Shown piece after piece: positions 16,958 through 51,670 of a DNA stretch of 64,000 nucleotides; position 1 is the first letter of the stretch; each line of letters begins with the position of its first letter. Made by a program: the position numbers and the translations under genes. The stretch covers positions 858 to 64,857 of the forward strand of contig CAKNJL010000003.1 of NCBI GenBank assembly GCA_930982035.1. The letters run 5' to 3'. Source of the stretch: an uncultured Clostridium sp. (GTDB lineage: Bacteria; Bacillota; Clostridia; TANB77; CAG-508). The notes beneath the pieces were generated by a model. It was given only the letters and a program-made list of their open reading frames with translations, was not told the DNA's origin and searched no databases.

Positions 16958-18229
16958 TTATATTTCCTCTTCTTCTTCAAACCAATTAAAACTACTAGAA
17001 TTCTTATTTTTCAAATACCATTCTTTTATAGCTTGTTTTGATAAACTCTTTTTCCAACCTTTTATTTTTCTTGGGTGCTTTATATTATTAGGTCTAGTCA
17101 TATTTGCTAATATATCAATTGCTATTAATGTAATAGAGTTATTATCCAACCTGCTATAATCCCTATAATTATCGCTATAAAAATTGTCTTTATTTTGAAA
17201 GCCATATTTTTTTCCTTGTATTTCTCTTCTTGATGTATAAATTCGTTCATCTTGTCCGTAACAATTGTTTCCACATTCTCTATCAATTTTTCTTGTAAAT
17301 CGTTCATAATGTTCTGTATTTCTTGCTTGTCCTTTTTCAAAGTTGTCCTTATTTCGTTTATATCTTCTGTCGCTTGTTTGTTCCAAATTATCATTTCTGT
17401 TATTATATCTGGATCTAGTAACATATATTTCATTATTATTGGTGTTTGTGTCATTTGTTGTTCTTCCGGTATATGTATTTGATTTTTCTTCTTTAATTCT
17501 TCCATTGATGGCATTTTCCATCTCCTCCTTTAAATATTTTTTATCATTTAATTTATTATCTCTACATTTCATTCCCTCAGGTGTTGTATAAGTTATATAT
17601 TTTCTTTTTTTAGTCCATAAAACTTGATATCCTAATTTATTCATATTCTTAAAAAATTCGGTTTTATTTTTACTTTTTTCTAATGAATAATCAATGGCAT
17701 TTGCTAATTTCATTTTCCAACTTTGCCCTTTTAATGCTACTTGATATTCATTTTTATTATATATTCCTTGATATTTTTTCTTTTCTATTATTTCTAGTCC
17801 CTCTTCTTTACAGAATTTATCGGAATAATCTTTTACTTTTTGCATATCATTTTTTGATTGATTAAATTTCTTTCCATTTTCAAAATTAACAGAATTTACA
17901 ATCAAATGATTATGTATATGCTTTCTATCAGTATGTGTAGCAACTAATACTTGAAAACCTTGAAAATAGTTTGCAAGTTTTATTCCTATTTCATGTGCTT
18001 TTTGAAAATCTAAATCATCTTTTGGACTAAATGATTGAACAATATGTATATATTGCCTTCCTCCATTTTTATTATAAAATTCTTTAACTGTTTTCATTTC
18101 TTCCAAACAACTATTGGCAACACAATCTTTTCCTGTTATTAAATTCGCATTTGTTTTATCTGTCCTTGTAACATAATCTATTATCGTTTTTAACTCTGCT
18201 TTTGAATTAGTAAATTTAATAATTGCCAA
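16958..18229 (-). CDS. relaxase/mobilisation nuclease (MobA/MobL family)
   Basis: HIHIVQSF...HTDRKHIHNHLIVNSVN three-His motif of MOB relaxases. Confidence 0.8.
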   Translation of the reverse strand: MAIIKFTNSKAELKTIIDYVTRTDKTNANLITGKDCVANSCLEEMKTVKEFYNKNGGRQYIHIVQSFSPKDDLDFQKAHEIGIKLANYFQGFQVLVATHTDRKHIHNHLIVNSVNFENGKKFNQSKNDMQKVKDYSDKFCKEEGLEIIEKKKYQGIYNKNEYQVALKGQSWKMKLANAIDYSLEKSKNKTEFFKNMNKLGYQVLWTKKRKYITYTTPEGMKCRDNKLNDKKYLKEEMENAINGRIKEEKSNTYTGRTTNDTNTNNNEIYVTRSRYNNRNDNLEQTSDRRYKRNKDNFEKGQARNTEHYERFTRKIDRECGNNCYGQDERIYTSRREIQGKKYGFQNKDNFYSDNYRDYSRLDNNSITLIAIDILANMTRPNNIKHPRKIKGWKKSLSKQAIKEWYLKNKNSSSFNWFEEEEEI

Positions 18230-18564
18230 ATAGACTTCATCTCCTTTTTTACATCTTCTAAATTTATATTTCTTAATCTTCCTTGATTACATAATTTAGT
18301 TAATTGATTTATGTTATTGCCTATTTTTCTTAATTGTATTATTATTTCTTCTAATCCATTTATAACTATAACATCTTTATCCATTGAAGTTCTTAATAAA
18401 TATTCGCTAGTATTTAATTTTGACTTTTCTATTTTACTTTTTATTTTGTTATACTCTTTTTCATTTACTCTAAAATTAAAATGTCTATTTTTATTTTGTT
18501 TTTTCTCTACCATAATTAACCTATCCTTTCCTTTTATGGGGTTTGGGTTCTCCCAATTCTTCAT
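18190..18564 (-). CDS. MobC-like relaxosome accessory protein
   Basis: ribbon-helix-helix-like NFRVNEKEYNKIKSKIEKS..EYLL; overlaps relaxase start. Confidence 0.65.
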   Translation of the reverse strand: MKNWENPNPIKGKDRLIMVEKKQNKNRHFNFRVNEKEYNKIKSKIEKSKLNTSEYLLRTSMDKDVIVINGLEEIIIQLRKIGNNINQLTKLCNQGRLRNINLEDVKKEMKSIWQLLNLLIQKQS

Positions 18565-18738
18565 CGCTAATCTCTATTTTCAAGTCCATTTGTATTACAA
18601 ATGGGAAGCTTGCCTAAAATAAAGTTAAACAGAACAAAAGCGACATGATTAAAATATCCTATCATTTTAGATTACTTATATGTCGCGTCTTTGTTCGTGT
18701 ACCAAATTTCTGTAAGAAATTTGTGTACAATTTTATAT

Positions 18739-18772
18739 GTGCTATTAGGTAATATAATTTCCTAATAGCACA
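18739..18772. promoter_or_regulatory. candidate oriT hairpin upstream of mobC
   Basis: inverted repeat tgtgctattagg...cctaatagcaca 190 bp upstream of mobC; a second IR gcgacat...atgtcgc at ~18643-18690. Confidence 0.35.
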
Positions 18773-18786
18773 TATACTTGTTGCAA

Positions 18787-19272
18787 TTACAAGTTTGTAT
18801 TTAGATTTGCATATAGTCCATTTAAAAATTCTTCTGGATATTCTCTGCCTATATACTTTTTATTTTTTATATTTCTTTTTATATCTTTATCATTTGTATT
18901 AATAGGTATTTTACAATTTTGATAATTCGTTTTATCATTTTTGTTAATAGTGTATCCACAATTTTGATAATACCTGTTCATAACTTCTTTTAAAGGTATT
19001 ATTTGTCTATTTTCTATTTCTTTTGAGTTCGATTTATAATTCATATTTATTTTTATATAGTTCTTTTTCTTTAAAGAATTTATTATTCTTGATATACTTA
19101 CAACTGTTACATTTAAAATATCAGAAAAATAATTATTGGTTGCAAAACAGTATCCTTTATCTTTACTTAAATATATAATCATAGATAATATTATTTTTTC
19201 CTTATCTGATAATTTGTTGTTTATCAATATTTCTGATGGCATCCATAATCCTTTTAAATCTGATTTGTTCAT
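18787..19272 (-). CDS. winged-helix/HTH protein, replication-initiator-like (as found on conjugative/mobilisable elements)
   Basis: 161 aa, N-terminal HTH LSDKEKIILSMIIYLSKDKGYCFATNNYFSDILNVTVVSISRIINSLKK. Confidence 0.4.
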   Translation of the reverse strand: MNKSDLKGLWMPSEILINNKLSDKEKIILSMIIYLSKDKGYCFATNNYFSDILNVTVVSISRIINSLKKKNYIKINMNYKSNSKEIENRQIIPLKEVMNRYYQNCGYTINKNDKTNYQNCKIPINTNDKDIKRNIKNKKYIGREYPEEFLNGLYANLNTNL

Positions 19273-30041: not shown

Positions 30042-30965
30042 CTATCTCCTTCTATCTACCGCATAGCTACTTCCCATTACTGATTTTGCCGCATGTTTTA
30101 CTTGTGCTCCTACTTCTCCTATTTCTAGTATATTACTAAATCTTCCTGTATCTGCAACAACAACTCCTATTGAAAGTGATGTTAGAGGAAATTGTTCTAT
30201 TATTCCTTTTCTATTTTCAACTTCAATATATCCTCTTTCTAAGTCCTTATCTGTAAAGAATCTTTTTACTTGACTATCAAACATTGTTAGTATATTTTGA
30301 CATATCTTTTCACAATTTATTGATGGCAATATTGCTACAAAATCGTCACCACCAATATGCCCTACAAATGCTTCTTCCGTAAGGTCTGTGTGTACTCCTC
30401 TTAAAATTGTTTCTGCTGTAAATTCTATTATTTGATCTCCTTTTACAAATCCATATACATCATTATATGCTTTAAAATTATCTAGGTCTAAATACAATAC
30501 AGAAAAAGGTTCTCCTTTTGATATTCTCTTTTTTAATTCAGCATGTATTTGGACATTTCCAGGTAGTCCAGTAAGAGGACTTACCTTTCTATTGTTAGTT
30601 AATAATCTATTTAAATTTTTTACTGTGTAATAAAGATATTCTTCATCTACTGGTTTCTTAATATAATATTCTATAGATTCTCTTAATATTTTCATTCTAT
30701 GTTCTTTATCATTGTTAGATGAAACAACTATAACTGGTGTTATTTTATTATCTTCATCTCGTCTTATCTGTTTGCAAATTCCTACTACTTCTCTATCTAT
30801 TGCATCTTCATTAATAATAATTAGAGAAGGTATGTTTTTTAATGCTATGTCTATTTGCTCAGATTTGACACTTATGAATTTGTAATCTTTATCATTTTTA
30901 AATAATTCTCTAAATATAACTATAGATGAATCGTCATCATCAATAATGTAAATTTCCTGAACCAT
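30042..30965 (-). CDS. response regulator with receiver domain and GGDEF domain (diguanylate cyclase-like, GGDDF variant)
   Basis: N-terminal REC (DD...K), C-terminal LTGLPG...YLDLDNFKAYND...GGDDFVAIL. Confidence 0.7.
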   Translation of the reverse strand: MVQEIYIIDDDDSSIVIFRELFKNDKDYKFISVKSEQIDIALKNIPSLIIINEDAIDREVVGICKQIRRDEDNKITPVIVVSSNNDKEHRMKILRESIEYYIKKPVDEEYLYYTVKNLNRLLTNNRKVSPLTGLPGNVQIHAELKKRISKGEPFSVLYLDLDNFKAYNDVYGFVKGDQIIEFTAETILRGVHTDLTEEAFVGHIGGDDFVAILPSINCEKICQNILTMFDSQVKRFFTDKDLERGYIEVENRKGIIEQFPLTSLSIGVVVADTGRFSNILEIGEVGAQVKHAAKSVMGSSYAVDRRR

Positions 30966-30966: not shown

Positions 30967-31737
30967 TTAATCCCCCTCTTTTTTTCTCTTTTTTAATTCT
31001 ATTTTTTTATTAAGAATTTCTGTAAACTCTTTAGTATCTATTGCTGGGAATGCTTTCTTTAATCTATATGCCCTTTTATACAAATTTCTTAATGTTTTAT
31101 CTCTTTTAGTTTTTAATTTGTCTACTAGCATTTGAATATTATCATTTGTAACATTTTTTTCTTTTAGTTCTAACAATTTTTCTTTGATTTGCTCATTTAT
31201 TTCTTCTATTTTTTGTAATGTTGTTTGTATATTTTTTACTTTTACTATACTTATTATTGCATCAATTAATAATATTAGTGCTATTATGCTAGCTATTATT
31301 GCTACATATATATAATCTACATATCCTATTATGTGTTGTATAAATGGATGTATATATTTTATAAATAAAACTCCTAATACTCCCCAAGCTAATGAATTTG
31401 CTAGACATACTCTTCCTTTAAAATTAAATCTATTTTTAGAGTAATCCCAATATTTAGTTTTGAATAACTTTTCTAAAAGTACTCCTACTATATATTCCCA
31501 TATTGATAAAACTATAAAAGATATAAAAAACAATAAAATAATATTATTTTCAAATCTATTTAAAAATAATATCATTATTATGGCCCCGAATCCATATATT
31601 GGACAAAATGGCCCTATAAGAAATCCTGTATTTATTATTTTTCTTTCACATATAGTTCTTACTATACTTTCTAATGTCCAACCTAAAAATGAATAGATAA
31701 TAAAATATATTAATATATAAAAAAATGTATTATCCAT
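30967..31737 (-). CDS. polytopic membrane protein (putative ABC-transporter type IV / CmpB-like family) with C-terminal charged coiled tail
   Basis: 256 aa, 5-6 TM helices, FLGWTLE start motif; 1-bp gap to downstream GGDEF gene. Confidence 0.4.
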   Translation of the reverse strand: MDNTFFYILIYFIIYSFLGWTLESIVRTICERKIINTGFLIGPFCPIYGFGAIIMILFLNRFENNIILLFFISFIVLSIWEYIVGVLLEKLFKTKYWDYSKNRFNFKGRVCLANSLAWGVLGVLFIKYIHPFIQHIIGYVDYIYVAIIASIIALILLIDAIISIVKVKNIQTTLQKIEEINEQIKEKLLELKEKNVTNDNIQMLVDKLKTKRDKTLRNLYKRAYRLKKAFPAIDTKEFTEILNKKIELKKRKKEGD

Positions 31738-31892: not shown

Positions 31893-32804
31893 TTATTTAT
31901 TTGCTCTAACTTTTCTTGTATCAGATGCTATTCCATCAACATTATAAGCTGTTATTTCTAGTATATTTTCATCATTTTCTATTAGTGGAAATCTATATTT
32001 TACTTCTGTTGCATTATCTTCTACTGTAACAGTTTTGCTTTCACCTCTTAATGTAACTTCTACTCTATCTAATCCTGTTTCATCTGTAATTGTAACTAAG
32101 TAATTTTCTTTTGCTTCATCTGCTCCTATTTCTATAACTGGTTTTGTAACTCCTTTTACTTTTTGTTCTTTTGTAATTGTTTCATTATTTACATCTACTA
32201 ATATTACTGTTAAATTATGTTCTCCCATTGGTATATCTATTTCTTGATCAACTGTTGTTGAATTGATATCTATTCTTTGTTCTTCCTCATCATCCCATCT
32301 ATATGTCATATATGATATCTCTGTCTCATTTTCTGCTGTTATTTTTAATTTACTTCCAGATACAGCTAAATTAATTATATCTTCTGCTGTATAGTCTATG
32401 TCTGTAGATATTTCTTGTCCATTTATATCTATAGCTCTTACATTTAACGTGTTTGTTCCGCCTGGGATTTCTACTTCTATTTCTATATTTTTTCTTCCAT
32501 TTCCCGTTACTGTTTCTACTTCTCCATCATTCCATTTGTATTCGATTCTATCTATTGCCTTGTCATGTGCAACTGATACTAGTACTGTTTTTTCGTCTTT
32601 TTGTGTTTCTGTTATTGTTGGCTTGGTTACTTCTGAATTTTTACTTTCGTTATCTTTATACATTGCATATGAACCTGTCCCTATCATGAAAACTCCAAAT
32701 ACAATCATTACTATTGCAAATACTTTAACAATTGTTTTTATATCTGCCGGTCCGCTTCTTTTCTTTTTAGATGTAGCTTCACTTGTGGCTAAGATTTGAT
32801 TCAT
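31893..32804 (-). CDS. single-pass membrane protein with repeated Ig-like/beta-sandwich extracellular domains
   Basis: TM helix IVKVFAIVMIVFGVFMIGTGSYAMY; start moved to Met10 (RBS agaggtg; promoter TTTACA-17-TGgTATAAT at 32837..32865 overlaps the longer ORF). Confidence 0.5.
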   Translation of the reverse strand: MNQILATSEATSKKKRSGPADIKTIVKVFAIVMIVFGVFMIGTGSYAMYKDNESKNSEVTKPTITETQKDEKTVLVSVAHDKAIDRIEYKWNDGEVETVTGNGRKNIEIEVEIPGGTNTLNVRAIDINGQEISTDIDYTAEDIINLAVSGSKLKITAENETEISYMTYRWDDEEEQRIDINSTTVDQEIDIPMGEHNLTVILVDVNNETITKEQKVKGVTKPVIEIGADEAKENYLVTITDETGLDRVEVTLRGESKTVTVEDNATEVKYRFPLIENDENILEITAYNVDGIASDTRKVRANK

Positions 32805-32902
32805 ACTTTTCACCTCTTTAACATTCTTCATGGCAAATTATACCATACCAATTTTTAATTGTAAAGTCTAACTTTCATTAAACTTTTTTAAGGGCTGTTT
32901 GC

Positions 32903-33183
32903 AAAATCATTAAGTTATAGATTGGTAAAGGACACCACTATGTCAAAGTATATAATATAAAAAAATGAACGATTTTGCATATCTAAATTTGAATTAGAAA
33001 TTCTTAAAGAAAAAAAGGTGTGATATGCACGGTACTCTCGATAAGAGAGGGTCTGAGTGCAAGAACACCTCTTTTTCTTTTAAAATTTCTTTGAAAATTT
33101 AGCTTATATAAAATTGTGAATGATTTTATATTATATACTTTGACATAGTGGTGTCCTTTACCAATCTATAACTTAATGATTTT
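32903..33183. repeat. 58-bp perfect inverted repeat (32903..32960 / 33126..33183) flanking a 165-bp segment that contains a bidirectional terminator hairpin
   Basis: aaaatcattaagttatagattggtaaaggacaccactatgtcaaagtatataatataa and its exact reverse complement; core ggtgtgatatgcacgg..ctctcgataagagag..gtgcaagaacacc flanked by A and U tracts. Confidence 0.7.
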
Positions 33184-33184
33184 G

Positions 33185-33210
33185 AGGACACTCCTTTCGT
33201 TGAGTGTCCT
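33185..33210. terminator. perfect hairpin gaggacactc-ctttcgtt-gagtgtcctc
   Basis: 10-bp stem, U-run on plus strand. Confidence 0.4.
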
Positions 33211-33248
33211 CTATTTTCTAAAAACATATGTCTAAGAAGTATTCTTCA

Positions 33249-36200
33249 TTATAACACAAATCTCTTAATTAGGACTATTCCTCCTGCTAATGTTCCTAAC
33301 ACTGTAAATCCTAATGTAAAATACATTACTGCTCTACCTGTTTCTATTGATAACAATACTGGGGCGTCATCTATATCGTCTTCTCCCTCTACTTGGTTAT
33401 CTGGTGTTGAGTCTCTATCTGGTACTCCTTTGTCATTATAGTCTTCTGATATTTCTGCTATATTTGTCATTTGTCCCATATTGTCTTCTCCATTTATCCA
33501 TGTTAATACTACTTCCACTTCTGCTGACTCTCCTGGTTGTAATAATGTATTTTCCAATAATCTTGTTGATATTATATTATTTCCTTCATCTGTCCAGCCT
33601 GGATTATCTTCTGCTACAAACATTAGTCCTTCTGGTACATAGTCTGTTATTTCTTTTGCATATCCTGCTATGTCTCCTTCGTTTGTTACTCTTATTTTGT
33701 ATCTGAATTTTACTGTTACATCATTTAAGTTCTTTCTATATAATTCTACTTTTACTACTGGCTCTGGATCCATTTCTGCTGTGTGTCCTGTTTGTGTTAC
33801 TGTTTCTTTTCCGTCTTCTATTACTATTGCTTCTGTTACCCATTTTCTTAATGCTAAATCAAAATATGTTAGTTTGATATATTCTCTATCTTGGTCATCT
33901 TCTCCTTCATTCCATTCATTTGGTGTTGAGTCTATATCTTCTACTGGATTTCCATTTTCATCACTATCTTCTGATATCTGTGCTGAGTTTACTATTATTC
34001 TGTCTGAACCATTTGGCTCTACTACTTCAAATGCTATTTTTACATCTCTATAATCTGGATTTCCTTCTCCTATTGGCTCATCTGGGTTAAATGCTTGTAA
34101 TAGATTTTCTCCTTCTGTCTCTTCTTGTTCTTTTGATAAATAATCTGTTCTTATTTCTACTGCTTCGTCTACATTTTCTGTTACATTTCCTTCTTCATCA
34201 TACATTACCCATCTGTATTCTACATTTGTTGCATTTTCTGGTAAGAATCTTAGTCCGTCTGGTATATCATCTGTTATTTCACTTGCATATCCTGCCATAT
34301 CACCTTCGTTAAATACTCTTATTGTATATTCTACTACATTTCCTGTCACTACTTCTACTGGGTCTTTTGTATGATTATATGTTATTTGATTTTCTTCTCT
34401 GTTATAACTTACCTCTGGTACTCTTGTTGTCACTTCTCCTTCATCTACTTTTGTGATGAATTTTCTTAATGCTAAATCAAATTCTTTTTCTTCTATTATT
34501 ACTTTTTCGAAGTCATCATCATCTTCTTGTCCTGGTACATAATCTTTGTCTATTTCATCATCTTTATATCCTGGTAAGTCTTCTGGTATTTCTATATTGT
34601 CTGGCGTTGAATCTTTGTCTGGCACACCTTCTTCATTGTAATCATCTGTTATTTCTGCTAAGTTTGTTAGTTTTACATTTGTTTGTGCTGTCTCTTTTAC
34701 CTTACATGCTACTTTTACTTCTTTGTAGTCTAATGTTGTTCCATCAAATGCTTTTATTAGATTTTGTCTTTGTTCTGTCTCTTTTTCTCTTGATAAATAG
34801 TCTGTTTTTATTTCTACTGCTTCTTCTGCATTTTCTGTTACATTCCCTTCTGCGTTATACATTACCCATTCATATTGTTGATTTGTTTCATGTTCTGGTA
34901 AAAACTCTAGTCCTTCTGGTATATAATCTGTTACTTCTTCTGCATATCCGTCTATTTCTCCTTCATTATATACTCTTATTGTGTATATGATTTCACTATT
35001 TTTACTTACTGTTACTGGTTGTTTTGGATGATTATATGTTGCTGTTCCTTCACTTTCTATTGTACTTGTATCTACTACTGGCTCTCTATTATATGATGTT
35101 CCATCTACTTTACTTATAAATTTTCTTAATGCTAAATCAAATTCTTTTATTTCTTTATTTGGTACTGTTATTGTAATTATATTCCCATTTAAAGAAACTT
35201 TTGCTCCTTGGTCTCCTCCTGATGTTAAACTTACATTTGTTGCTTCATATGTATTACTGTCTTCTCCACTTACTCCTTTTTCTACTTCTACTGTTATATT
35301 TCCTACTATTATATTATATCCTTCTGGGGCTCTTGTTTCTGTTATTGTTATACTATCTGTTCCCGCTTGTGTAATTTGCACTGTCCCTAGATTTAATATT
35401 CCATTTACTGTTGTTCCTGTTTGAGCAGTGCTTTGCCCTGGTAATGTCCAACTAAATCCTGCTCCTGATGTCGTTATTAGATTTCCATCCTCATCTACTT
35501 TTTGTAATTGTAATTCATATGAACCTGTTCTTTCTGATACTAATACTTTTTCGAAGTCATCATCATCTTCTTGTCCTGGGATGTATTGATCTCCTCTTTC
35601 TATTTCTTCATCTCTATATCCTGGTAAATCTTCTGGTATTTGCAAATTATCTGGTGTTGAATCTTTATCTGGTTCATTATAGTCATTATAATCATCTGTT
35701 ATTTCTGCTAAATTTGTTAATTTTACATTTGATTCAACATCTGCTTTTACTTTACATACTACTTGTATTTCTTTATAACTTAATGTTTCTCCATCAAATG
35801 CTTTTATTAAATTCTGTCTTTGATCTGTTTCTTTTTCTTTAGATAAATAATCTGTTTTTATTTCTACTGCTTCTTCTGCATTTTGTGTTATATTTCCTTC
35901 TGCATTATACATTACCCATTCATATTGTTGATTTACTCCATTCTCTGGTAAAAATTCTAATCCTTCTGGTATATAATCTGTTACTTCTTCTGCATATCCG
36001 TCTATTTCTCCTTCATTATATACTCTTATTGTGTATGTTATTTCACTTTCTCTGTTTACTCTAATTGGTTCTTTTGTGTGATTATATGTCCCTGTTCCTT
36101 CACTTTTTATTGTACTTGTATCTACATTTGGTTGTCTATTATATGATGTTCCATCTACTTCACTTATAAATTTTCTTAATGCTAAATCGAATTCTTTTAT

Positions 36201-38312
36201 TTCTTTATTTGAAATTGTTATCTTTATTACTCCATTTTCTAGACTTGCACTCGCATTTGTATTTTCTGGAACAACTTTTGCATCTGTTACTGTATAAATT
36301 CCATTTACTAGTTCTTTTGTTATCTCTACTGTTATGTTTCCTATTAATGGATTGTATCCTGTTGGTGGATTTGTCTCTGTTATCGTTATTGTATCTGTTC
36401 CTGTTTGTGTAATTTCTACTGTTCCTAAATCTAGTAATCCATTTGCAGTAGTTCCTGTTCTATCTTGTTCTTCTCCTGGTAATCTCCAACTAAATCCTGC
36501 ATTTGATGTTGTTATTAGATTTCCATTTTCATCTACTTTTTGTAATTGTAATTTATAATTTCCTTCTGCCTTTGGTATTATTATTTTTTCAAAATCATCA
36601 TCATCTTGTTGTCCTGCAAAATAACTATTATTATCTGTTATGTCTTTTCCATTATTACTTGCATTTCCTCTATATCCTTCATCTTCAGTTACTAATTGGT
36701 CTTTTGTTTGTGTTTGTATCGTTGATGGTTCTGAATCTCTGTCTTTTCCTACTTCTGTTGTTATTGTTTCTCCTGTTACTCCATCTACTTCTTCTGCTAT
36801 CCATGCGATATTTGTTAATATTTTATTATTTGCTCCTGCTGTCCCTGTTACTTTACATTTTATTTGTATTACTTCTGAACTTAATGTTGTTCCATTATAT
36901 GCTGGTAAATTAGTTGTATTTCCTGATTTCCTTGTCAATGTTAATGTATTATTTGTTTGATCATATCCCCCTGCTAATACTTCAAAGTCTCCACTTACCA
37001 CTTCCGTAAATTCTAATCCTTCTGGTAATTGGTCTACTATTTTTGTTGCTCTTCCTTCTTTTTCTCCTTCATTATATATGCTTATACTATATGTAATATA
37101 ATCTCCTGTACTTACTACTACTGGGTCTTTTCTGTTATAATATTCTGCTGTTGTTGTTGTTCCTTGTATTGTTGTTTGATTTATATTTTTAACTGTTCCA
37201 TCTGTATTTAATTGTCTTTCTGCATTTTCTCCTTCTAGATTCGTAATTCCTTTTCCTGTTCCTTCACTATTTGTTATTGATACTATTGATTTTCTTAATG
37301 CTAAATCAAATTCTTGTGGATTTCTTTCTACTTTCATTAATGGTTGTGCATCTCTTTGTTTTGTTGAAGCATACAATATTAATTTATTTTTATGTTTAAC
37401 GTTTGAATCGGCATATTGATTTGCATTTGCTTTTGCTGTTTTTATTAGGTAATTATATAACTTTACAGCTTGTTGTTGTCTTGCATTACCTGCACCTTGA
37501 TCTTCAAATGTTGCCCCTGTTGGGTTATAACTTGCTAAATTTTGGTAAGTTGAAGAATCTGTTGTATAAAATAGCCATGATGACTCATCTGTTTTATCAT
37601 ATTTTCTTTCATCACCATACATTTCATCATAATTTGTAAAATACCATATTGCTGCTTGTTGAACTGACTCTATTTCATCATCTGTTATATAAAACTGTTC
37701 TTCTCCTTCTACTCCTTCAAATTCCTCCCATATATCTGTTACTTTTGCTTGTGTTAATAATTCTTCTCTTTCTGTTTCTGTTGATTCTCCTGGTAAATAA
37801 ATCAAATTAGCTAATGCAAGTAATTCATTATAATGTCCTCCATTTACAAGATTATATAATATTTTATTACTTGTACTTTCATCTTCTTTTGCTATTTGGT
37901 CTCTTTCTGTATACATATCAAATTCTAAGTCATATTCTTGTGTACCTCTTATACCTTCTCCTTCTGTAAATCCTACTCCAGCTTTTACACAATACACATT
38001 AACTTTCATTGGATTAGTTGCAGATGATGTATTATATTGCACAATATTCCATATTTTTGCAGATGGTCCCCCTGTTGTTCCATCGCCATTTGCTTTTGGA
38101 TCTCCAATTGAATACCCTATATTACTTCCTACTTCAATTTCTTGTATTCCAAAATATAGTGATGGATTCATTTGTTTAGCTTCTACTACATTATTCAATA
38201 AGCTTATAATTAAAATAATTATAAAAATAATAATTCCTTTTATTCTATTCATACTAGTTTTCCTCCAATAATTCTTTATTATAAGTATAATCGATTTTAT
38301 AAGTATTTTCAA
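33249..38312 (-). CDS. large surface adhesin: signal peptide, N-terminal thioester-like (TQXA-type) domain, multiple DUF11 and SpaA/CnaB-type isopeptide-fold repeats, C-terminal ETG + TM + KRFVL sorting signal
   Basis: YCVKAGVGF (Cys) and SVQQAAIWYF (Gln) motifs; repeats GDYITYSISIYNEGE..IVDQLPEGLEF (DUF11); ITITETNPPTGYN; C-term LLSIETGRAVMYFTLGFTVLGTLAGGIVLIKRFVL. Confidence 0.7.
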   Translation of the reverse strand: MKILIKSIILIIKNYWRKTSMNRIKGIIIFIIILIISLLNNVVEAKQMNPSLYFGIQEIEVGSNIGYSIGDPKANGDGTTGGPSAKIWNIVQYNTSSATNPMKVNVYCVKAGVGFTEGEGIRGTQEYDLEFDMYTERDQIAKEDESTSNKILYNLVNGGHYNELLALANLIYLPGESTETEREELLTQAKVTDIWEEFEGVEGEEQFYITDDEIESVQQAAIWYFTNYDEMYGDERKYDKTDESSWLFYTTDSSTYQNLASYNPTGATFEDQGAGNARQQQAVKLYNYLIKTAKANANQYADSNVKHKNKLILYASTKQRDAQPLMKVERNPQEFDLALRKSIVSITNSEGTGKGITNLEGENAERQLNTDGTVKNINQTTIQGTTTTAEYYNRKDPVVVSTGDYITYSISIYNEGEKEGRATKIVDQLPEGLEFTEVVSGDFEVLAGGYDQTNNTLTLTRKSGNTTNLPAYNGTTLSSEVIQIKCKVTGTAGANNKILTNIAWIAEEVDGVTGETITTEVGKDRDSEPSTIQTQTKDQLVTEDEGYRGNASNNGKDITDNNSYFAGQQDDDDFEKIIIPKAEGNYKLQLQKVDENGNLITTSNAGFSWRLPGEEQDRTGTTANGLLDLGTVEITQTGTDTITITETNPPTGYNPLIGNITVEITKELVNGIYTVTDAKVVPENTNASASLENGVIKITISNKEIKEFDLALRKFISEVDGTSYNRQPNVDTSTIKSEGTGTYNHTKEPIRVNRESEITYTIRVYNEGEIDGYAEEVTDYIPEGLEFLPENGVNQQYEWVMYNAEGNITQNAEEAVEIKTDYLSKEKETDQRQNLIKAFDGETLSYKEIQVVCKVKADVESNVKLTNLAEITDDYNDYNEPDKDSTPDNLQIPEDLPGYRDEEIERGDQYIPGQEDDDDFEKVLVSERTGSYELQLQKVDEDGNLITTSGAGFSWTLPGQSTAQTGTTVNGILNLGTVQITQAGTDSITITETRAPEGYNIIVGNITVEVEKGVSGEDSNTYEATNVSLTSGGDQGAKVSLNGNIITITVPNKEIKEFDLALRKFISKVDGTSYNREPVVDTSTIESEGTATYNHPKQPVTVSKNSEIIYTIRVYNEGEIDGYAEEVTDYIPEGLEFLPEHETNQQYEWVMYNAEGNVTENAEEAVEIKTDYLSREKETEQRQNLIKAFDGTTLDYKEVKVACKVKETAQTNVKLTNLAEITDDYNEEGVPDKDSTPDNIEIPEDLPGYKDDEIDKDYVPGQEDDDDFEKVIIEEKEFDLALRKFITKVDEGEVTTRVPEVSYNREENQITYNHTKDPVEVVTGNVVEYTIRVFNEGDMAGYASEITDDIPDGLRFLPENATNVEYRWVMYDEEGNVTENVDEAVEIRTDYLSKEQEETEGENLLQAFNPDEPIGEGNPDYRDVKIAFEVVEPNGSDRIIVNSAQISEDSDENGNPVEDIDSTPNEWNEGEDDQDREYIKLTYFDLALRKWVTEAIVIEDGKETVTQTGHTAEMDPEPVVKVELYRKNLNDVTVKFRYKIRVTNEGDIAGYAKEITDYVPEGLMFVAEDNPGWTDEGNNIISTRLLENTLLQPGESAEVEVVLTWINGEDNMGQMTNIAEISEDYNDKGVPDRDSTPDNQVEGEDDIDDAPVLLSIETGRAVMYFTLGFTVLGTLAGGIVLIKRFVL

Positions 38313-38516: not shown

Positions 38517-41500
38517 TTATAACACAAACTTTTTAATTAGTGCTATTCCTCCTGCTAATGTTCCTAACACTGTAAATCCTAATGTAAAATACATTACTGC
38601 TCTACCTGTTTCTATTGATAACAATACTGGGGCGTCATCTATATCGTCTTCTCCCTCTACTTGGTTATCTGGTGTTGAGTCTCTATCTGGTACTCCTTTG
38701 TCATTATAGTCTTCTGATATTTCTGCTATATTTGTCATTTGTCCCATATTGTCTTCTCCATTTATCCATGTTAATACTACTTCCACTTCTGCTGACTCTC
38801 CTGGTTGTAATAATGTATTTTCCAATAATCTTGTTGATATTATATTATTTCCTTCATCTGTCCAGCCTGGATTATCTTCTGCTACAAACATTAGTCCTTC
38901 TGGTACATAGTCTGTTATTTCTTTTGCATATCCTGCTATGTCTCCTTCGTTTGTTACTCTTATTTTGTATCTGAATTTTACTGTTACATCATTTAAGTTC
39001 TTTCTATATAATTCTACTTTTACTACTGGCTCTGGATCCATTTCTGCTGTGTGTCCTGTTTGTGTTACTGTTTCTTTTCCGTCTTCTATTACTATTGCTT
39101 CTGTTACCCATTTTCTTAATGCTAAATCAAAATATGTTAGTTTGATATATTCTCTATCTTGGTCATCTTCTCCTTCATTCCATTCATTTGGTGTTGAGTC
39201 TATATCTTCTACTGGATTTCCATTTTCATCACTATCTTCTGATATCTGTGCTGAGTTTACTATTATTCTGTCTGAACCATTTGGCTCTACTACTTCAAAT
39301 GCTATTTTTACATCTCTATAATCTGGATTTCCTTCTCCTATTGGCTCATCTGGGTTAAATGCTTGTAATAGATTTTCTCCTTCTGTCTCTTCTTGTTCTT
39401 TTGATAAATAATCTGTTCTTATTTCTACTGCTTCGTCTACATTTTCTGTTACATTTCCTTCTTCATCATACATTACCCATCTGTATTCTACATTTGTTGC
39501 ATTTTCTGGTAAGAATCTTAGTCCGTCTGGTATATCATCTGTTATTTCACTTGCATATCCTGCCATATCACCTTCGTTAAATACTCTTATTGTATATTCT
39601 ACTACATTTCCCGTTACTACTTCTACTGGGTCTTTTGTATGATTATATGTTATTTGATCTTTATCTCTATCATAACTTACCTCTGGTACTCTTGTTGTCA
39701 CATCTTCTTCATCTACTTTTGTAATAAATTTTCTTAATGCTAAATCAAATTCTTGTAACATAATATTATCATAATCTTCGTCATCCTCATATTTTACCCA
39801 TTCTTCTGGACTTGAATCTCTATCATCTACTGGATTTCCTTCGCTATCAGCATCTTCTGTTATTGCTACTTCATTTCTTATAATACCTATACTTGGATCT
39901 TCAGCAGTTACTTTAAGTATTACTGATATTTCTCTATAATCTGGATTTCTATTATCTTCTGTGTCAGAGTATGGACTATTTGGATCAAATGCTTTTATTA
40001 GATTAGCTCCTGGTGTTGTTATTTCTTCTCCTTTACCTCTTCCTAAGTAGTCTGTTGAAATCATATTAGTGTCTCCATCAACATAAGTCCAGCCCATTGA
40101 TGTGTTAAATTCTACTGCTGATAATTTATCTTCGTCTGTTATTGGTTCCATATTTTCATCTACATTTGTTCCTAAAAATGTTAGTCCTTCTGGGATGTCT
40201 TCTGTTATTTCTTCTGCATATCCATCTATGCTTCCTTCATTATATATTCTAAATGTATATGTTACTAAGTCTCCAGTTTGTACTGTAATTGGATCTTTAT
40301 TTAATTGATAATCTGCTGTTGTTGCTGTTCCATTTGCTAGATTTGTAATATCTACACCTAATAATCTTTCTGGAACTGCTTCCCCATTTACTTCTGTAAT
40401 TCTTTTTATTAATGCTAAATCAAATTCATTACTATCAATAATTAATTTTTCAAAATCATCATCATCTTGTTGTCCTTCATAGAAGTAATCTGAATCTGTT
40501 AATTCTTCTTTATTATCTTCATTTCCTGTATAGTCTTCCATATTGTCTTTATCTACATTTGGTGCTGTTCCTGGTTCTGAATCTCTGTCAGCACCTGTTT
40601 CATTTATTATTTCATTTCCATATTCATCTACTTCTTTTGATATCCATGCTACATTTGTTAAAACTTTTCCATTTTCACTTGTATCTACAGTACATTCTAT
40701 TTCTATAGTCTCTGCTTCTGCTACTAGATTTCCTTCTGTGTATGCTGGTATATTTTCTGTGTTATCAGTATTTCTAGTTATTGTTAATCTGTTTGTTCCT
40801 TCATCATATGATGCTGTAAATCCTGGTGTATTTATTTTTGAGTATTTTAAACCTGTTGGCAATTGGTCAATTATCTCTGTTGCTCTTCCGTCTAAATCTC
40901 CTTCATTATATATTGTAATGTTATATGTAACTATATCTCCATTTTCAACTTTTACTGGATCTTTTCTATGGTTATATTCTGCTGTTGTACCATTTTTCAA
41001 AGTACTTTCGTCTACATTTGGTACTCTTGTATCTGTAACATTTACGCCATTTACTTTTGTTATATATTTTCTTAATGCTAGGTCAAATTCTTGGTCTTCT
41101 CTTTCAACTTTCATTAATGGTTGTGCATCTCTTTGTTTTGTTGAAGCATATAATGTTAATTTATTTCTATGTCTAACATTTGGGTTTGCATATTGGTCTG
41201 CATTTGCTTTCGCAGTTTCTATCAAGTAATTATATAATTTTACAGCTTGTTGTTGTCTTGCATTACCTGCACCTTGGTCTTCAAATGCTGCCCCTGTTGG
41301 GTTATAACTTGATAAATTTTGGTAAGTTGAAGAATCTGTTGTATAAAATAACCATGATGACTCATCTGTTTTGTCATATTTTCTTTCTCCATTATACATT
41401 TCATCATAATTTGTAAAATACCACATTGCTGCTTGTTGAACTGACTCTATTTCATCATCTGTTATATAATACTGTTCTTCTCCTTCTACGCCTTTAAATT

Positions 41501-42038
41501 CCTCCCATATATCTGTTACTTTTGCTTCTGTTAATAATTGTTCTCTTTCTGCATCTGTTGACTCCCCTGGTAAGTAAAGTAGATTTGCTAATGCAAGTAA
41601 TTCATTGTAATGTCCACCATTTACAAGATTATATAATATTTTATTACTTGTATTTTGATCTTCTGTAGCTATTTGATCTCTTTCTGTATACATATCAAAT
41701 TCTAAGTCATATTCTTGTGTACCTCTTATCCCTTCTCCTTCTGTAAATCCTACTCCGGCCTTTACACAATATACATTAACTTTCATTGGATTAGTTGCAG
41801 ATGATGTATTATATTGCACAATATTCCATATTTTTGCTGAAGGTCCTCCTGTACTACTATCACCATTCGCTTTTGGGTCTCCTATTGAATATCCCATTTC
41901 ACTTCCTACTTCAATCTCTTGAATTCCAAAATATAGTGATGGTGACATTGTTTTTGCATTTACTATACTAGGTAATATTGCTAAACATACTGCTAATAAT
42001 GTTCCGATAAAACTTTTTACAATTCTCTTTTTACACAT
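38517..42038 (-). CDS. paralogous surface adhesin (1173 aa) sharing near-identical N-terminal thioester-like domain and C-terminal ~470 aa with 33249..38312
   Basis: C-terminal ~1.35 kb of DNA nearly identical between the two genes (identical antisense ORFs 33347..34312 and 38615..39580); same sorting signal. Confidence 0.7.
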   Translation of the reverse strand: MCKKRIVKSFIGTLLAVCLAILPSIVNAKTMSPSLYFGIQEIEVGSEMGYSIGDPKANGDSSTGGPSAKIWNIVQYNTSSATNPMKVNVYCVKAGVGFTEGEGIRGTQEYDLEFDMYTERDQIATEDQNTSNKILYNLVNGGHYNELLALANLLYLPGESTDAEREQLLTEAKVTDIWEEFKGVEGEEQYYITDDEIESVQQAAMWYFTNYDEMYNGERKYDKTDESSWLFYTTDSSTYQNLSSYNPTGAAFEDQGAGNARQQQAVKLYNYLIETAKANADQYANPNVRHRNKLTLYASTKQRDAQPLMKVEREDQEFDLALRKYITKVNGVNVTDTRVPNVDESTLKNGTTAEYNHRKDPVKVENGDIVTYNITIYNEGDLDGRATEIIDQLPTGLKYSKINTPGFTASYDEGTNRLTITRNTDNTENIPAYTEGNLVAEAETIEIECTVDTSENGKVLTNVAWISKEVDEYGNEIINETGADRDSEPGTAPNVDKDNMEDYTGNEDNKEELTDSDYFYEGQQDDDDFEKLIIDSNEFDLALIKRITEVNGEAVPERLLGVDITNLANGTATTADYQLNKDPITVQTGDLVTYTFRIYNEGSIDGYAEEITEDIPEGLTFLGTNVDENMEPITDEDKLSAVEFNTSMGWTYVDGDTNMISTDYLGRGKGEEITTPGANLIKAFDPNSPYSDTEDNRNPDYREISVILKVTAEDPSIGIIRNEVAITEDADSEGNPVDDRDSSPEEWVKYEDDEDYDNIMLQEFDLALRKFITKVDEEDVTTRVPEVSYDRDKDQITYNHTKDPVEVVTGNVVEYTIRVFNEGDMAGYASEITDDIPDGLRFLPENATNVEYRWVMYDEEGNVTENVDEAVEIRTDYLSKEQEETEGENLLQAFNPDEPIGEGNPDYRDVKIAFEVVEPNGSDRIIVNSAQISEDSDENGNPVEDIDSTPNEWNEGEDDQDREYIKLTYFDLALRKWVTEAIVIEDGKETVTQTGHTAEMDPEPVVKVELYRKNLNDVTVKFRYKIRVTNEGDIAGYAKEITDYVPEGLMFVAEDNPGWTDEGNNIISTRLLENTLLQPGESAEVEVVLTWINGEDNMGQMTNIAEISEDYNDKGVPDRDSTPDNQVEGEDDIDDAPVLLSIETGRAVMYFTLGFTVLGTLAGGIALIKKFVL

Positions 42039-42843: not shown

Positions 42844-44148
42844 ATGAAAATTTCTCATATTTATAAAATTCTTTTACCATTTTTTCTTATAATGTTTATT
42901 ACTAATTATGTACTTGCAGATGATATATCACCATTAGATGATAAGTTTGATATTTACGAAGTTTTAGAAGATACAGAAAGTATAGAAACAAATAGTAATT
43001 CATCTGAACTTCCGACAATAAATTCTAGGGCTTATGTTGTTATTGATAGAAAAACTAATACTATACTTGTTGGAAAAAATGAAAATCAAAAAAAGAAAAT
43101 GGCTTCTACCACAAAAATTATGACAGCACTAATTGTCATTGAAAACTGTAATTTATCCGAAACTGTTGAAATTTCTAAAAAATCTGCATCTACTGGAGGC
43201 TCTAGACTTGGCTTAAAAACAGGTGACAAAATAACAGTCTATGACTTATTATATGGTCTAATGATGCGTTCTGGTAATGATTGCGCTGTAGCCTTAGCAG
43301 AACATACTGCTGGATCCATTAGTAGCTTTGCTGATTTAATGAATCAAAAAGCTATTGCATTAGGATTATCTAATACCCATTTTGTAACTCCACATGGACT
43401 AGATGAAGATGAACATTATACAACAGCTTATGAATTAGCACTTCTTTCTAATTATGCCATGAATAATGAAATATTCGCCAAAATAGTAGGAACTAAAAAT
43501 TATACAATAACAATTAATGGATATCCTAAATCTTTGACAAACACTAATGAACTACTAGGTTCTTTAAATGGTGTCTATGGTATAAAAACTGGTTTTACAA
43601 ATGGTGCAAATAGATGTTTAGTGACCTGTTGTAAAAGAGGTGAAATGGATTTAATTTGTGTGGTTCTAGGAGCTGATACAAAAAAATATAGAACAACTGA
43701 CAGCATTAAACTTCTTGAATACTCTTTTAGTAATTTCAAATATGTAAATATAGAAAAAATGGTCTCTAACTATTTTGAAACATGGAAAGAAAATAATGAA
43801 AATTCTTTTACTATAAATAAAGGATTTTCAAATTATCTAAGCTTAAAATATGAAGATTTAAAATATTCTACTATTCCTGTAAGAAATGATTTAGTTGACA
43901 AATTCCAGTTTTATATAACTTGTAACTATATCTTAGACTCTCCTATTAGTAAAGGAACATCTATTGGTACTATTACATTGTCTTTAGAAGATAAAACCAT
44001 TTATTCTGGCAATATCATAACTGACTCTGAAATTAAAAAGAAATCTGTTTTTGACTATATGTTTTATTTTTATAAAAACTTTTATAATATTCTTAATGAC
44101 TTTGGGGACGGAGAAAAAAATCATTTTTCTCCGTCCCCAAAATCATAA
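42844..44148 (+). CDS. D-alanyl-D-alanine carboxypeptidase (peptidase S11, PBP5/DacF-like) with signal peptide
   Basis: SxxK ASTTKIM, SGN, KTG motifs, 434 aa. Confidence 0.8.
   Translation: MKISHIYKILLPFFLIMFITNYVLADDISPLDDKFDIYEVLEDTESIETNSNSSELPTINSRAYVVIDRKTNTILVGKNENQKKKMASTTKIMTALIVIENCNLSETVEISKKSASTGGSRLGLKTGDKITVYDLLYGLMMRSGNDCAVALAEHTAGSISSFADLMNQKAIALGLSNTHFVTPHGLDEDEHYTTAYELALLSNYAMNNEIFAKIVGTKNYTITINGYPKSLTNTNELLGSLNGVYGIKTGFTNGANRCLVTCCKRGEMDLICVVLGADTKKYRTTDSIKLLEYSFSNFKYVNIEKMVSNYFETWKENNENSFTINKGFSNYLSLKYEDLKYSTIPVRNDLVDKFQFYITCNYILDSPISKGTSIGTITLSLEDKTIYSGNIITDSEIKKKSVFDYMFYFYKNFYNILNDFGDGEKNHFSPSPKS
44104..44139. terminator. bidirectional terminator hairpin ggggacggagaaaaa-aatca-tttttctccgtcccc between convergent carboxypeptidase and acpP
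   Basis: 15-bp perfect stem incorporating A/U tracts; member of GGGGACGGAG palindrome family. Confidence 0.55.
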
Positions 44149-44562: not shown

Positions 44563-44600
44563 TGTCAATGGGGACGGAGATTTTGACAACTCCGCCCCCA
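44563..44600. repeat. GC-rich hairpin caatggggacggag-N10-ctccgcccccattg between plsX and acpP
   Basis: imperfect 14-bp inverted repeat, same GGGGACGGAG motif. Confidence 0.5.
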
Positions 44601-48149: not shown

Positions 48150-48420
48150 TATCTATAATCTCATTTTTAATTTTGTATAAAATTGCTATAATGTGCATTT
48201 TCGAAATGTTATTCAAGCCGAAGGCGTACGTTGTGTACGTCAAAGTTTGAATAACATAGCAAAAATGTGCAAGATAGTGATTTTAGAAACCTCTATTTAA
48301 AATTTTGTATAAAATTGCTGTAATGTGCATTTTTGAAATGTTATTCAAGCTGAAGGCGTACGTTGTGTACGTCGAAGTTTGAATAACATGGCAAAAATGT
48401 GCAGGACAGTGATTTTAGAC
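48150..48420 (-). repeat. two tandem ~130-bp copies of structured intergenic repeat family B between fusA and tuf
   Basis: (ctatttaaaattttgtataaaattgct.taatgtgcatttt.gaaatgttattcaagc.gaaggcgtacgttgtgtacgtc.aagtttgaataacat.gcaaaaatgtgca) x2; nested hairpins; minus-strand loop gccUUCGgc. Confidence 0.7.
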
Positions 48421-48424
48421 AAAA

Positions 48425-50506
48425 TTAGTCTTTTTTAGCACGAGACGCAACAATCTGCTCAAATACAGATTTTGGTACTTCTTCATAATGAGAAGGTTCC
48501 ATTGAATAAGTTCCTCTACCTTGTGTTTTAGAACGTAAATCTGTTGCATAACCAAACATTTCAGATAATGGTATAAATGCATGGATTTCTTGCATTCCAT
48601 CATTACCATCCATACCTTCCATTCTTCCTCTTCTTGAGTTTACATCTCCAATAACATCTCCCATATATTCTTCTGGAACTGTTATTTCAACTTTCATGAT
48701 TGGCTCTAATATAACTGCTTTAGCTTGTTTACAACCTTCTTTGAAAGCCATAGATGCTGCAATTTTGAATGCCATTTCAGAAGAGTCAACTTCGTGGTAT
48801 GAACCGTCAACTAATGTACATTTGAAATCTATAACTGGGTAACCAGCTAATATACCACTTTCTGCTGCTTCTCTCATACCTTGTTCAATAGCTTTGAAAT
48901 ATTCTTTAGGAACTGCTCCTCCAACGATTTTGCTTTCGAATTCAATTCCTTTACCTGGTTCTAATGGTTCCATTTCAAACCAAACATCACCATATTGTCC
49001 TTTACCACCAGATTGACGAATAAATTTACCTTGAACTTTTACTTTATTTCTTATTGTTTCTTTGTAAGCAACTTGTGGTTTACCAACATTACATTCAACC
49101 TTGAATTCTCTTTTTAATCTATCAACGATGATATCTAAGTGTAATTCACCCATACCTGCAATGATAGTTTGTCCAGTTTCATGGTTTGTATATGTTTTAA
49201 ATGTTGGATCTTCCTCTGCAAGTTTTGATAGCGCAATTCCCATTTTTTCTTGAGCTACTTTATCTTTAGGCTCTATTGCTATATCGATAACTGGCTCTGG
49301 GAATTCCATTGATTCTAGTATAACAGGTGCATTCATATCACATAATGTATCTCCTGTTGTTACTTCTTTTAATCCTACTGCTGCTGCGATATCTCCAGCA
49401 TATACTTTTTCGATATCTTCTCTATGATTTGAGTGCATTTGTAGAATTCTTCCTATTCTTTCTTTTTTATCTTTATTAGAGTTTAATACAGTAGAACCTG
49501 ATTCTAATGTACCTGAGTAAACTCTAAAGAAACATAATTTTCCAACAAATGGGTCTGTTGCAATTTTAAATGCTAATGCTGCAAATGGTTCTTTATCATC
49601 AGTTTTTCTTTCAACTTCATTACCATCTAAATCAACACCTTTGATATGTGGTATATCTAATGGTGATGGCATATAGTCAACTATAGCATTTAATAATTCT
49701 TGAACACCTTTGTTTTTATATGAAGAACCACATGTTACTGGAACTATTGTGTTATCAATTGTTCCTTTTCTTAATCCTTTTTTGATTTCTTCCTCTGTTA
49801 GTTCTTCACCATCTAAATATTTCATCATTAATTCTTCATCTTGATCTGCAACAGCTTCTATCATAATATCACGATGTTTTTTTGCATCTTCTATCATATC
49901 TTCTGGAATATCACATTCCTCTATTTCTCTTCCTAAATCATCTTTATGAATAAAAGCTCTCATTTTAATTAAGTCAACAATTCCTTTGAAATTGTCTTCT
50001 GCTCCAATTGGTAATTGGATAGCTATAGCGTTTGCTTTTAATCTATTTTTTAATTGATCAATACATAGTTCAAAGTTAGCTCCTGTAACATCCATTTTGT
50101 TAACATATACCATTCTTGGAACTTTGTATTTATCAGCTTGTCTCCAAACTGTTTCTGTTTGTGGTTGAACACCACCTTTGGCAGCCAAAACTGTAACTGC
50201 TCCGTCAAGAACTCTTAGAGATCTTTGAACCTCTACTGTAAAGTCAACGTGTCCAGGTGTGTCAATAATATTGATTCTATTATTGTTCCAGAAACATGTT
50301 GTGGCAGCAGATGTAATTGTAATACCTCTTTCTTGTTCTTGTTCCATCCAGTCCATTGTTGCTGCACCCTCATGAACTTCTCCTATTTTATGAGTTTTTC
50401 CTGTATAGAATAATATTCTCTCTGTTGTTGTTGTTTTACCAGCATCAATATGAGCCATTATTCCTATATTTCTTGTTCTTTCAAGTGGGTATGCTCTTCC
50501 TGCCAT
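48425..50506 (-). CDS. fusA: elongation factor G
   Basis: [17 protein letters not shown], 693 aa. Confidence 0.97.
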
Positions 50507-50710
50507 TTTTGTATTTCCCCCTCTCTATATTTAAAATTCACTAAATTCGTTTTTAGCGTTGTCAAACTTCTCAAAAATATTTTCAATATACAAAAGTATT
50601 ATTTCAAATATTTTTGCTCGTTTTCCTAGCTAAAATTCGAATTTATTAAATTTTATTGTTTGGATAAATTTTATTTTGTAATTTTTAAATTTTGATTTAA
50701 AATGGTAAGA

Positions 50711-50800: not shown

Positions 50801-50812
50801 TCAATCAAAATT

Positions 50813-51648: not shown

Positions 51649-51670
51649 TGCCTGATTTCATTTATTTTAA

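Follow-up and report, generated by a model that had tools for sequence, protein, structure and literature searches.

We analyzed a 281-bp inverted-repeat element (32903-33183) in a 64-kb stretch of DNA from an uncultured Clostridium sp. (GenBank assembly GCA_930982035.1, contig CAKNJL010000003.1, positions 858 to 64,857), referred to here as the window. The element lies between a large adhesin gene, whose stop codon is 65 nt away, and an operon that encodes a GGDEF-domain response regulator. The genes around it are all on the minus strand (Table 1). Two inverted-repeat arms bound a core that carries a terminator at its apex. The original prediction, made from the sequence alone, placed the limits of the element correctly but gave arms of 58 bp and an inner segment of 165 bp, which we revise to 60 nt and 161 nt. 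Comparison with related genomes indicates an intergenic element that is unstable and undergoes recombination; it is not a proven genetic switch.

Architecture of the inverted-repeat element

The two arms have 0 mismatches, and no such match was obtained in 100 shuffles. An extra C/G pair (32902/33184) extends the match to 61 positions. That C is part of the adhesin-gene hairpin and is also present in alleles without the element. A repeat finder reports the region 32890-33196 as an imperfect palindrome with 132-nt arms and 81% complementarity, and the palindrome region is predicted to fold into one long hairpin per strand (-156 and -162 kcal/mol on the two strands, z ~ -23). Identity between the core and its reverse complement is 71-73%, and the two halves, both AU-rich, can be told apart.

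The bidirectional stem-loop terminator proposed inside the segment was borne out by symmetric folds and U-tracts on both strands. The predicted apex hairpin has a folding energy of -30.5 kcal/mol on the minus strand, where it is followed by U7, and of -30.8 kcal/mol on the plus strand, where it is followed by U5CU4. Both strands thus have the features of an intrinsic terminator, a stable G+C-containing hairpin with a directly following U-tract. A simple terminator scan missed the apex owing to its branched loop, and we identified it by folding. The hairpin that follows the adhesin gene lacks a U-tract on the gene's own strand; its T-tract is on the opposite strand, and the terminator scan flags it on the plus strand only. 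The apex is therefore the first canonical terminator met by the adhesin transcript.

The element (281-293 bp) is AT-rich and intergenic. Its sole open reading frame (ORF) has 10 codons and is broken in the related locus L021; none is longer. Rfam searches of the whole window at gathering scores, and of the region at E<=1, returned only miRNA-precursor noise. The 445-nt intergenic sequence is base-for-base identical in four independent metagenome assemblies, so the element is not an assembly artefact. An outward TTGACA in the window arm was considered as a promoter and dropped for lack of conservation; the corresponding hexamer is TTCCCA in L021 and CCCCCA in L075.

On the operon side, the element is accompanied by a 12-nt tail. 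In sequence, the tail is a degenerate, inverted version of the adhesin hairpin's 3' half; its position corresponds to that of the right repeat unit (GTCTCCGACCCC) of a distant clade described below (compared with L089). We rejected an interpretation of the tail (AGGGCTGTTTGCAAAA) as the end of an IS6-family element (GGTTCTGTTGCAAAG), as the resemblance is not kept in other variants. Just beyond the tail lies the downstream gene's own extended -10 promoter, which was predicted at this site and which we confirmed at 32865-32837 on the minus strand. This promoter is conserved across the whole genus-level set of relatives, and the adhesin hairpin is conserved in alleles that have an empty site.

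Table 1. Features of the element, its flanking genes and a recurrent hairpin unit (window coordinates)
Feature	Position	Strand	Description
Inverted-repeat arm, promoter side	32903..32962	none	60 nt; inward AGGACA-16-TATAAT
Inverted-repeat arm, adhesin side	33124..33183	none	60 nt; inward AGGACA-16-TATAAT
Core between arms	32963..33123	none	161 bp; inverted in L075, L076 and L078
Apex bidirectional intrinsic terminator	33006..33080	both	Branched hairpin between A-tract and T-tract
Tail	32891..32902	-	12 nt, GCAAACAGCCCT on the minus strand; only in element-carrying alleles
Hairpin after adhesin gene	33184..33211	-	10-bp G+C-rich stem, GAGGACACTC..GAGTGTCCTC; fold -18.6 kcal/mol
Operon promoter	32837..32865	-	TTTACA, 17 nt, TG-n-TATAAT; 11/12 matches with TG in scan
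Adhesin gene (upstream)	33249..38312	-	1687 aa; Pfam matches PF08341, PF01345 and PF17802
First operon gene	31893..32804	-	303-aa protein of unknown function; N-terminal hydrophobic segment
CmpB-like protein gene, operon	30967-31737	-	After the 303-aa protein gene
Response regulator gene with GGDEF domain, operon	30042-30965	-	After the CmpB-like gene
GGGGACGGAGA unit	44097-44145		TGATTT(T)GGGGACGGAGAAAAAATCA; terminator-like hairpin after D-Ala-D-Ala carboxypeptidase gene
GGGGACGGAGA unit	44570-44580		Single copy
GGGGACGGAGA unit	60270-60440		63-nt-armed 98% palindrome, two tandem units per arm, between SNF2 and GidA-like genes

Alleles, core orientation and arm divergence

We found related loci with the 303-aa protein as anchor, fetched 120 of them and compared the spacer at the same site. 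Loci L001-L004 (anchor identity 100%) carry an identical element. L021 (92%) has the same core orientation and is a chimeric copy in which one core end has been converted to the sequence of the other, giving a longer repeat. L075, L076 and L078 (96%) have the element between the same flanking genes with the core in the opposite orientation. The cores of the window and L075 are identical at 149/169 positions (88.2%) when one is flipped and at 114/169 (67.5%) as is, and the unflipped value is at the background level set by the core's self-complementarity. By these alignments, the core is inverted between sister lineages (the window, L001-L004 and L021 versus L075-L078). We rejected the possibility that this inversion reflects a choice made by the assembler: the window-type contigs come from assemblies at k = 87 and k = 141 and span the 60-nt repeat, and the perfect stretch of the L075 arms has just 44 nt. 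Logan contigs that break 30 nt into the arm were likewise dismissed as a sign of mixed orientation, given that k-1 = 30 is expected for any repeat longer than k = 31.

Orientation differs within a lineage in 0 of 34 contigs, all of them consensus contigs. This set comprises 5 contigs of the window type, 4 of the L075 type and three distant-clade types that are each internally uniform: 7 of the P0132 type, 8 of the P0121/P0122 type (L089, L093 and L101-L106) and 10 of the P0141 type. The distant clade, which we reached by a protein-family scan of a second metagenome collection and further look-ups, has an anchor protein that is 61% identical and contigs that reach 1.5-1.6 Mb. Its spacer contains an 80-180-nt segment with a bidirectional terminator, inverted repeats of ~29-40 nt (TGATTTTGGGGACGGAGACAAAAATCATT / AATGATTTTTGTCTCCGACCCCAAAATCA) and flanking arrays of TGATTTTGG / CCAAAATCA motifs. 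The left repeat is the site of the terminator module and its TTTATAATATAAT flank in L089 and L101-L106. In L111-L120 the module is reverse-complemented at the right repeat, and the L091 type is arranged likewise, more loosely. The comparison of L089 with L091 is weak on its own (alignment score 133 flipped versus 113 as is), but that of L101 with L112 is convincing, with both the module and its TTTATAATATAAT flank reverse-complemented at the other repeat.

The element is lost or truncated in about half of the close lineages. L077 (anchor 96%) has the flipped form, from which a deletion at an AATTT repeat has removed the central ~110 nt. L083 (98%) retains the arms around a 15-nt loop, following a deletion between two AAAATC direct repeats. 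In the scar allele of L009-L013 (96%), one arm persists as its outer 20 nt (TCATTAAGTTAAAGATTAGG), directly next to the -35 box. Clean empty sites occur in L015-L020 (94%), where the hairpin is followed by TAAAAAG..., and in L079 (96%), whose 303-aa protein is identical to that of L075. L023-L026 (76%) have no element, and in L081, an 83% relative, part of the inner sequence is ordinary spacer. Filled and empty alleles differ by the element plus the 12-nt tail. Both junctions of filled alleles read TAAA (L075 and L083) or AAAA (the window and L021), but the empty site predicted from these 4-nt direct repeats is one base off the observed one, and A-runs are common here. Separately, L074 (1-126) encodes the same 303-aa protein as L073, which has a window-type arm, and has a different spacer upstream of its -35 box (TTACCAATTCTATTGTTTTTATAAAATCAG...). 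It may be a further rearranged allele on a short contig.

Within single elements the arms differ at 0 (window), 1 (L021) or 4 (L075) positions, compared with 5-12 between elements. All remaining mismatches between the arms of one element fall within the outermost 16 nt, a distribution that conversion tracts with a start inside the repeat would produce. Where lineages differ by a substitution in one arm, the other arm mirrors it. This pattern bears out the ongoing homogenization proposed in the original prediction and indicates, at the level of sequence, that the arms undergo concerted evolution. Read inwards, the arm gives a gap-free alignment with the operon promoter native to the L009 type, with TATAAT in register and 17/19 identities in the upstream block. 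The arms may thus have arisen as inverted copies of local sequence.

Divergence between lineages is uneven along the element. It amounts to 4-7% in the arm's outer 30 nt, the TATATAATATAAAA block, the two AU-rich halves of the core and the 43-nt apex tip; the tip is nearly invariant, and the basal stem changes by compensating substitutions. Divergence reaches 27-47% in a 15-nt patch of each arm and 22-47% in the terminator stem, and the changes are always mirrored on the pairing partner. For comparison, third codon positions of the neighboring gene diverge by 12-15%, and an unconstrained stretch just past the adhesin stop differs at 7/36 positions. As transcripts from either side should stop at the apex, the complementarity between the arms is probably maintained as DNA and not as an RNA helix.

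We found no second copy of the element in the window or the 120 fetched loci. The collections were scanned for exact matches to window-type or partly degenerate arm or apex patterns, and the organism's complete genome was outside these searches. In GTDB (one genome per species), a window-specific 20-mer of the arm returned nothing. A degenerate 19-mer of the arm end, which allowed for the window, L021 and L009 forms and not the L075 form, returned 46 unrelated matches, mostly from Vibrio, and no arm copy. An arm scan of JGI metagenomes and three viral scans of IMG/VR found no match, and neither did BLAST when the element was compared with phage and plasmid records. The check for an invertase suggested in the original prediction was also negative in the window: we found no small invertase or tyrosine recombinase among its ORFs of at least 150 aa, and its only recombinases are two large serine recombinases (505 and 521 aa; 5308-8409) in a putative mobile element 25 kb away. 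No fetched contig has an invertase near the locus. We found no transposase in the window and saw none of the RAYT type.

Explanations for the flipped core and matched arms

We give about even credence to the explanation that this is a resident, non-coding foldback terminator element that arm recombination flips, homogenizes and deletes. On one side the element has the 3' hairpin of a variable adhesin gene, and on the other a promoter that suffices on its own for the next operon. The arms would stay identical through intramolecular recombination with each other, together with gene conversion, template switching at the quasipalindrome as it is replicated, or both. Arm recombination would also occasionally flip the core and make the palindrome prone to deletion, and no dedicated invertase would be needed. 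In other lineages, partial or whole deletions of the element do fall at short direct repeats. Template-switch mutation in quasipalindromes is an established mechanism (PMC7202029). The element shares with long inverted repeats and quasipalindromes in general its flip-flop, arm homogenization, mirrored clusters of substitutions and loss of sequence at short direct repeats. Familiar instances of such behavior are the isomers of plastid inverted repeats and the loss of palindromes provoked by SbcCD. On rough reasoning, exchange between 60-bp repeats is expected many times over the divergence that separates the window from L075 and rarely among near-identical strains. Flipping between but not within lineages thus matches the expectation from general recombination rates without an enzyme.

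With its symmetric terminator and arms, such an element could flip with little or no regulatory effect. The adhesin transcript would gain its first hairpin-plus-U-tract terminator and a 3' untranslated region (UTR) lengthened by ~190 nt, and the operon would be insulated from read-through in either direction. The original prediction had proposed that inversion modulates read-through from the adhesin gene into the operon. Our results do not support this: the terminator is symmetric and the operon promoter lies outside and downstream of the segment, so flipping should not change read-through. We found no orientation-dependent regulatory content, as the segment combines this symmetric terminator with the lack of an outward promoter.

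Several observations weigh against flipping as a by-product of arm recombination. In the distant clade, the same spacer has a flipped, repeat-bounded terminator with repeats of only 29 nt. Repeats of this length are short for RecA-dependent exchange, which hints at a maintained architecture or a site-specific enzyme. Outside its two variable patches, the element is more conserved than the third codon positions of its neighbor (4-7% versus 12-15% divergence, P 1e-4 to 1e-2). This conservation suggests a sequence-level function beyond the terminator, and long inverted repeats, which are general phenomena of DNA metabolism and not a defined element family, leave it unaccounted for. Finally, the accelerated and mirrored patches (22-47%) are not predicted by plain gene conversion. 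The alternatives are not all mutually exclusive with the explanation that we prefer.

A programmed inverton, in which a site-specific recombinase encoded elsewhere reversibly flips the 161-bp segment as a form of phase variation, is unlikely in our view. The orientation would then adjust the 3' UTR of the adhesin mRNA, antisense transcripts that enter the adhesin gene, or the extent to which transcription reads through into the GGDEF operon. Inverted repeats do flank a short non-coding segment that occurs in both orientations among close relatives, and the spacer of the 61%-identity clade, with its 29-nt repeats, also occurs in both (L089/L101 versus L112/L091). The original idea of an invertible segment stands to this extent, but programmed site-specific switching is not supported, given the uniform orientation within lineages and the lack of an invertase near the locus in any fetched contig. 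The inversion was detected by identity that is restored on flipping, as for the Clostridioides difficile flagellar switch (PMC5386303), and a location beside a variable surface adhesin is typical of invertons (PMC11892184). The invertible content is functionally symmetric, however, and the promoter of the operon is outside it; the frequent loss or truncation of the element in close lineages also argues against a switch. The TGATTTTGG / CCAAAATCA arrays of the distant clade could be protein-binding sites. The conserved arm flanks with their co-varying patch resemble recombination sites whose crossover core must match between partners, although no dyad-symmetric binding arms surround the patch. 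We regard as rather doubtful an extended form of this idea, a recombinase-driven invertible cassette maintained genus-wide behind variable adhesin genes in these uncultured, low-G+C gut Firmicutes with small genomes of ~1.6 Mb. In this form, the cargo would be a terminator with two convergent promoter copies, and the arm patch would be a lineage-specific crossover core. If true, such a cassette would place a switch at the 3' end of a surface-protein gene and not at its promoter.

The closest precedents for a programmed switch are those controlled by RecV in C. difficile (cwpV / Cdi1 and flgB / Cdi4). Like the element, these are non-coding segments of 150-200 bp with inverted repeats, next to a surface-protein gene in a low-G+C Firmicute. 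They contain no promoter or coding sequence, and an intrinsic terminator is involved at cwpV, which provides a precedent for a terminator switch (PMC2784873). Inversion at flgB was recognized from a between-strain identity of ~66% that rises sharply on reverse-complementing (PMC2784873, PMC5386303). The element differs from both switches in repeat length, position relative to the promoter, terminator symmetry and the lack of a known recombinase (PMC2784873, PMC5386303). RecV switches have imperfect 21-bp repeats, far shorter than the perfect 60-bp arms seen here, and lie in a 5' UTR between promoter and ORF, whereas the element follows the 3' end of the adhesin gene and precedes the next promoter. 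In those switches only one orientation allows the terminator to form; the terminator of the element is the same in both. Their orientations coexist in cultures and their recombinase is known, whereas for the element we found no recombinase and saw no mixed populations among consensus contigs.

An origin as a mobile element is improbable on our assessment. The element would be a low-copy MITE (miniature inverted-repeat transposable element) or foldback transposon, a non-autonomous mobile unit inserted between the adhesin terminator and the operon promoter, and the empty sites would represent the pre-insertion state. A size below 500 bp, AT-rich sequence, terminal inverted repeats, an intergenic position and the lack of an ORF fit the definition of a MITE, and MITEs may have as few as 1 copy per genome (PMC10969869). 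The element shares these traits with terminator-like repeats such as Correia, RUP, ERIC and SPRITE. Prokaryotic MITEs can also carry terminators or promoters and produce filled and empty sites between strains (PMC10969869, PMC3184786, PMC3049150). The presence or absence of the element beside an identical neighbor protein (L075 versus L079) is compatible with the mobility suggested in the original prediction, as are the 4-nt direct repeats at both junctions (TAAA in L075 and L083, AAAA in the window), and a recent spread could account for how little most of the element diverges compared with host genes. A multicopy MITE is not supported, with no second copy found in the window, the 120 loci or the collections searched. 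The 60-nt arms are twice the usual maximum (4-30 nt; PMC10969869), the 12-nt tail on one side makes the element asymmetric, predicted and observed empty sites are one base apart, the target duplication is not convincing, and we found no cognate transposase in the window. The ordinary-spacer status of the inner sequence in L081 and the likeness of the arm to the native promoter instead suggest a local origin. This likeness also bears on the quite improbable alternative of two convergent small transcription units, in which each arm would be a promoter copy that drives a ~110-nt RNA ending at the apex, and the conserved AU-rich halves with the apex would make up a sense/antisense pair of functional RNAs. 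The inward promoter-like sites in both arms score 10/12, the gap-free alignment to the L009 operon promoter keeps the -10 element in register, and the -10 block and transcribed halves are conserved around a hypervariable -35/-10 spacer. However, the -35 hexamer decays to AGGACG or AGGATG in other variants, there is no extended -10, no Rfam family exceeded noise and the element is dispensable in many strains; with no conserved small ORF, it is not a type I toxin-antitoxin pair. A static long-stem terminator and nothing more, the outcome that the original prediction named as its own refutation, is extremely unlikely. Its single copy, strong apex and uniform orientation in 5/5 sequences of the window lineage agree with such a terminator, but a sister lineage has the core inverted, the two arms show concerted evolution, the element is frequently deleted or lost, and a terminator does not need 60-bp arms 50 nt from its stem.

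If flipping is a by-product of recombination, as in the explanation that we prefer, the element would be a clean natural example of the behavior of long inverted repeats in a bacterial chromosome, with flip-flop, arm homogenization, mirrored mutation clusters, deletion scars and complete loss in one spacer. It would also caution surveys that infer invertons from the geometry of repeats or from genomes that differ in orientation. If flipping is instead programmed, an uncultured gut lineage would have a switch located behind a variable adhesin gene and before a c-di-GMP signaling operon, and the recombination site of this switch would be unusually long and co-evolving.

Palindromic repeat families and neighboring genes

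Each repeat that bounds the distant-clade segment is a copy of a hairpin unit rich in G+C, TGATTT(T)GGGGACGGAGA..AAAATCA, which is present 7 times in the window, compared with 0.04 expected. The unit looks like a REP/BIME-like family (repetitive extragenic palindromes and bacterial interspersed mosaic elements) of this genus, to judge by its sequence and arrangement, as it recurs in window spacers singly, as hairpins and as inverted arrays. The same organization is known for REPs in BIMEs, and REP units are ~35 nt long. REP/BIME organization has been described (PMC3184786). The 60-nt arms of the element do not contain the unit, and no RAYT-type transposase was seen here. The resemblance is confined to the adhesin hairpin, which is similar to the genus-wide hairpin unit TCTCCGTCCCC-AAAATCA (compared with 44097-44145), and to the tail. 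The hairpin with AAAATCATT, and the 12-nt tail, look like decayed copies of the unit. A literature search with the GGGGACGGAGA motif returned only unrelated primer sequences.

In L096 (~800-1130, upstream of a gene at 1201), a tandem duplication has doubled the left repeat unit (TGATTCTGGGGTCGGAGACAAAAATCA twice), and additional CCACAAAAT(C/T)A units are present on the right flank. The bounding repeats of the distant clade thus expand and contract. A second palindromic family of ~130 nt has four copies in the window (two in 48162-48432, one in 50674-50826 and one in 51535-51676), with the core TGTGCATTTTTGA...CAAGCYGAAGGCGTACGTTGTGTACGTCGAAGTTTG...GCAAAAATGTGCA and no Rfam match. All copies have the same orientation and lie in the spacers between tuf, fusA, rpsG and the next gene. 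Since the window holds these other palindromic intergenic families, palindrome-rich spacers are a property of this genome.

The 1687-aa adhesin contains a thioester domain (TED), DUF11/CLIPPER repeats and a SpaA-like fold. It is one of two tandem TED/DUF11 paralogues (33249-38312, 1687 aa, and 38517-42038, 1173 aa) that have a conserved C-terminal anchor in common. The adhesin directly upstream of the conserved operon ranges from 891 to 1687 aa between strains (including L015, L021, L023, L102 and L103), and this difference in length indicates that the gene beside the element is itself a variable cassette. Genes past the GGDEF regulator also vary among relatives and encode NUDIX, amidase or ParA-like proteins. 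Downstream of the operon, the window encodes a 1549-aa protein (24096-28745) with FHA and FtsK/SpoIIIE ATPase domains, which is EssC-like and related to type VII secretion or DNA translocase proteins.

Toward the start of the window, the two serine recombinases are adjacent to each other and are found near an N6 DNA methylase-HTH fusion, a MobA/VirD2 relaxase and an HTH_36 protein (1243-2904, 5308-8409 and 16958-19272). The predicted functions of this cluster suggest an integrated mobilizable element that adjoins chromosomal genes such as that for HisRS.

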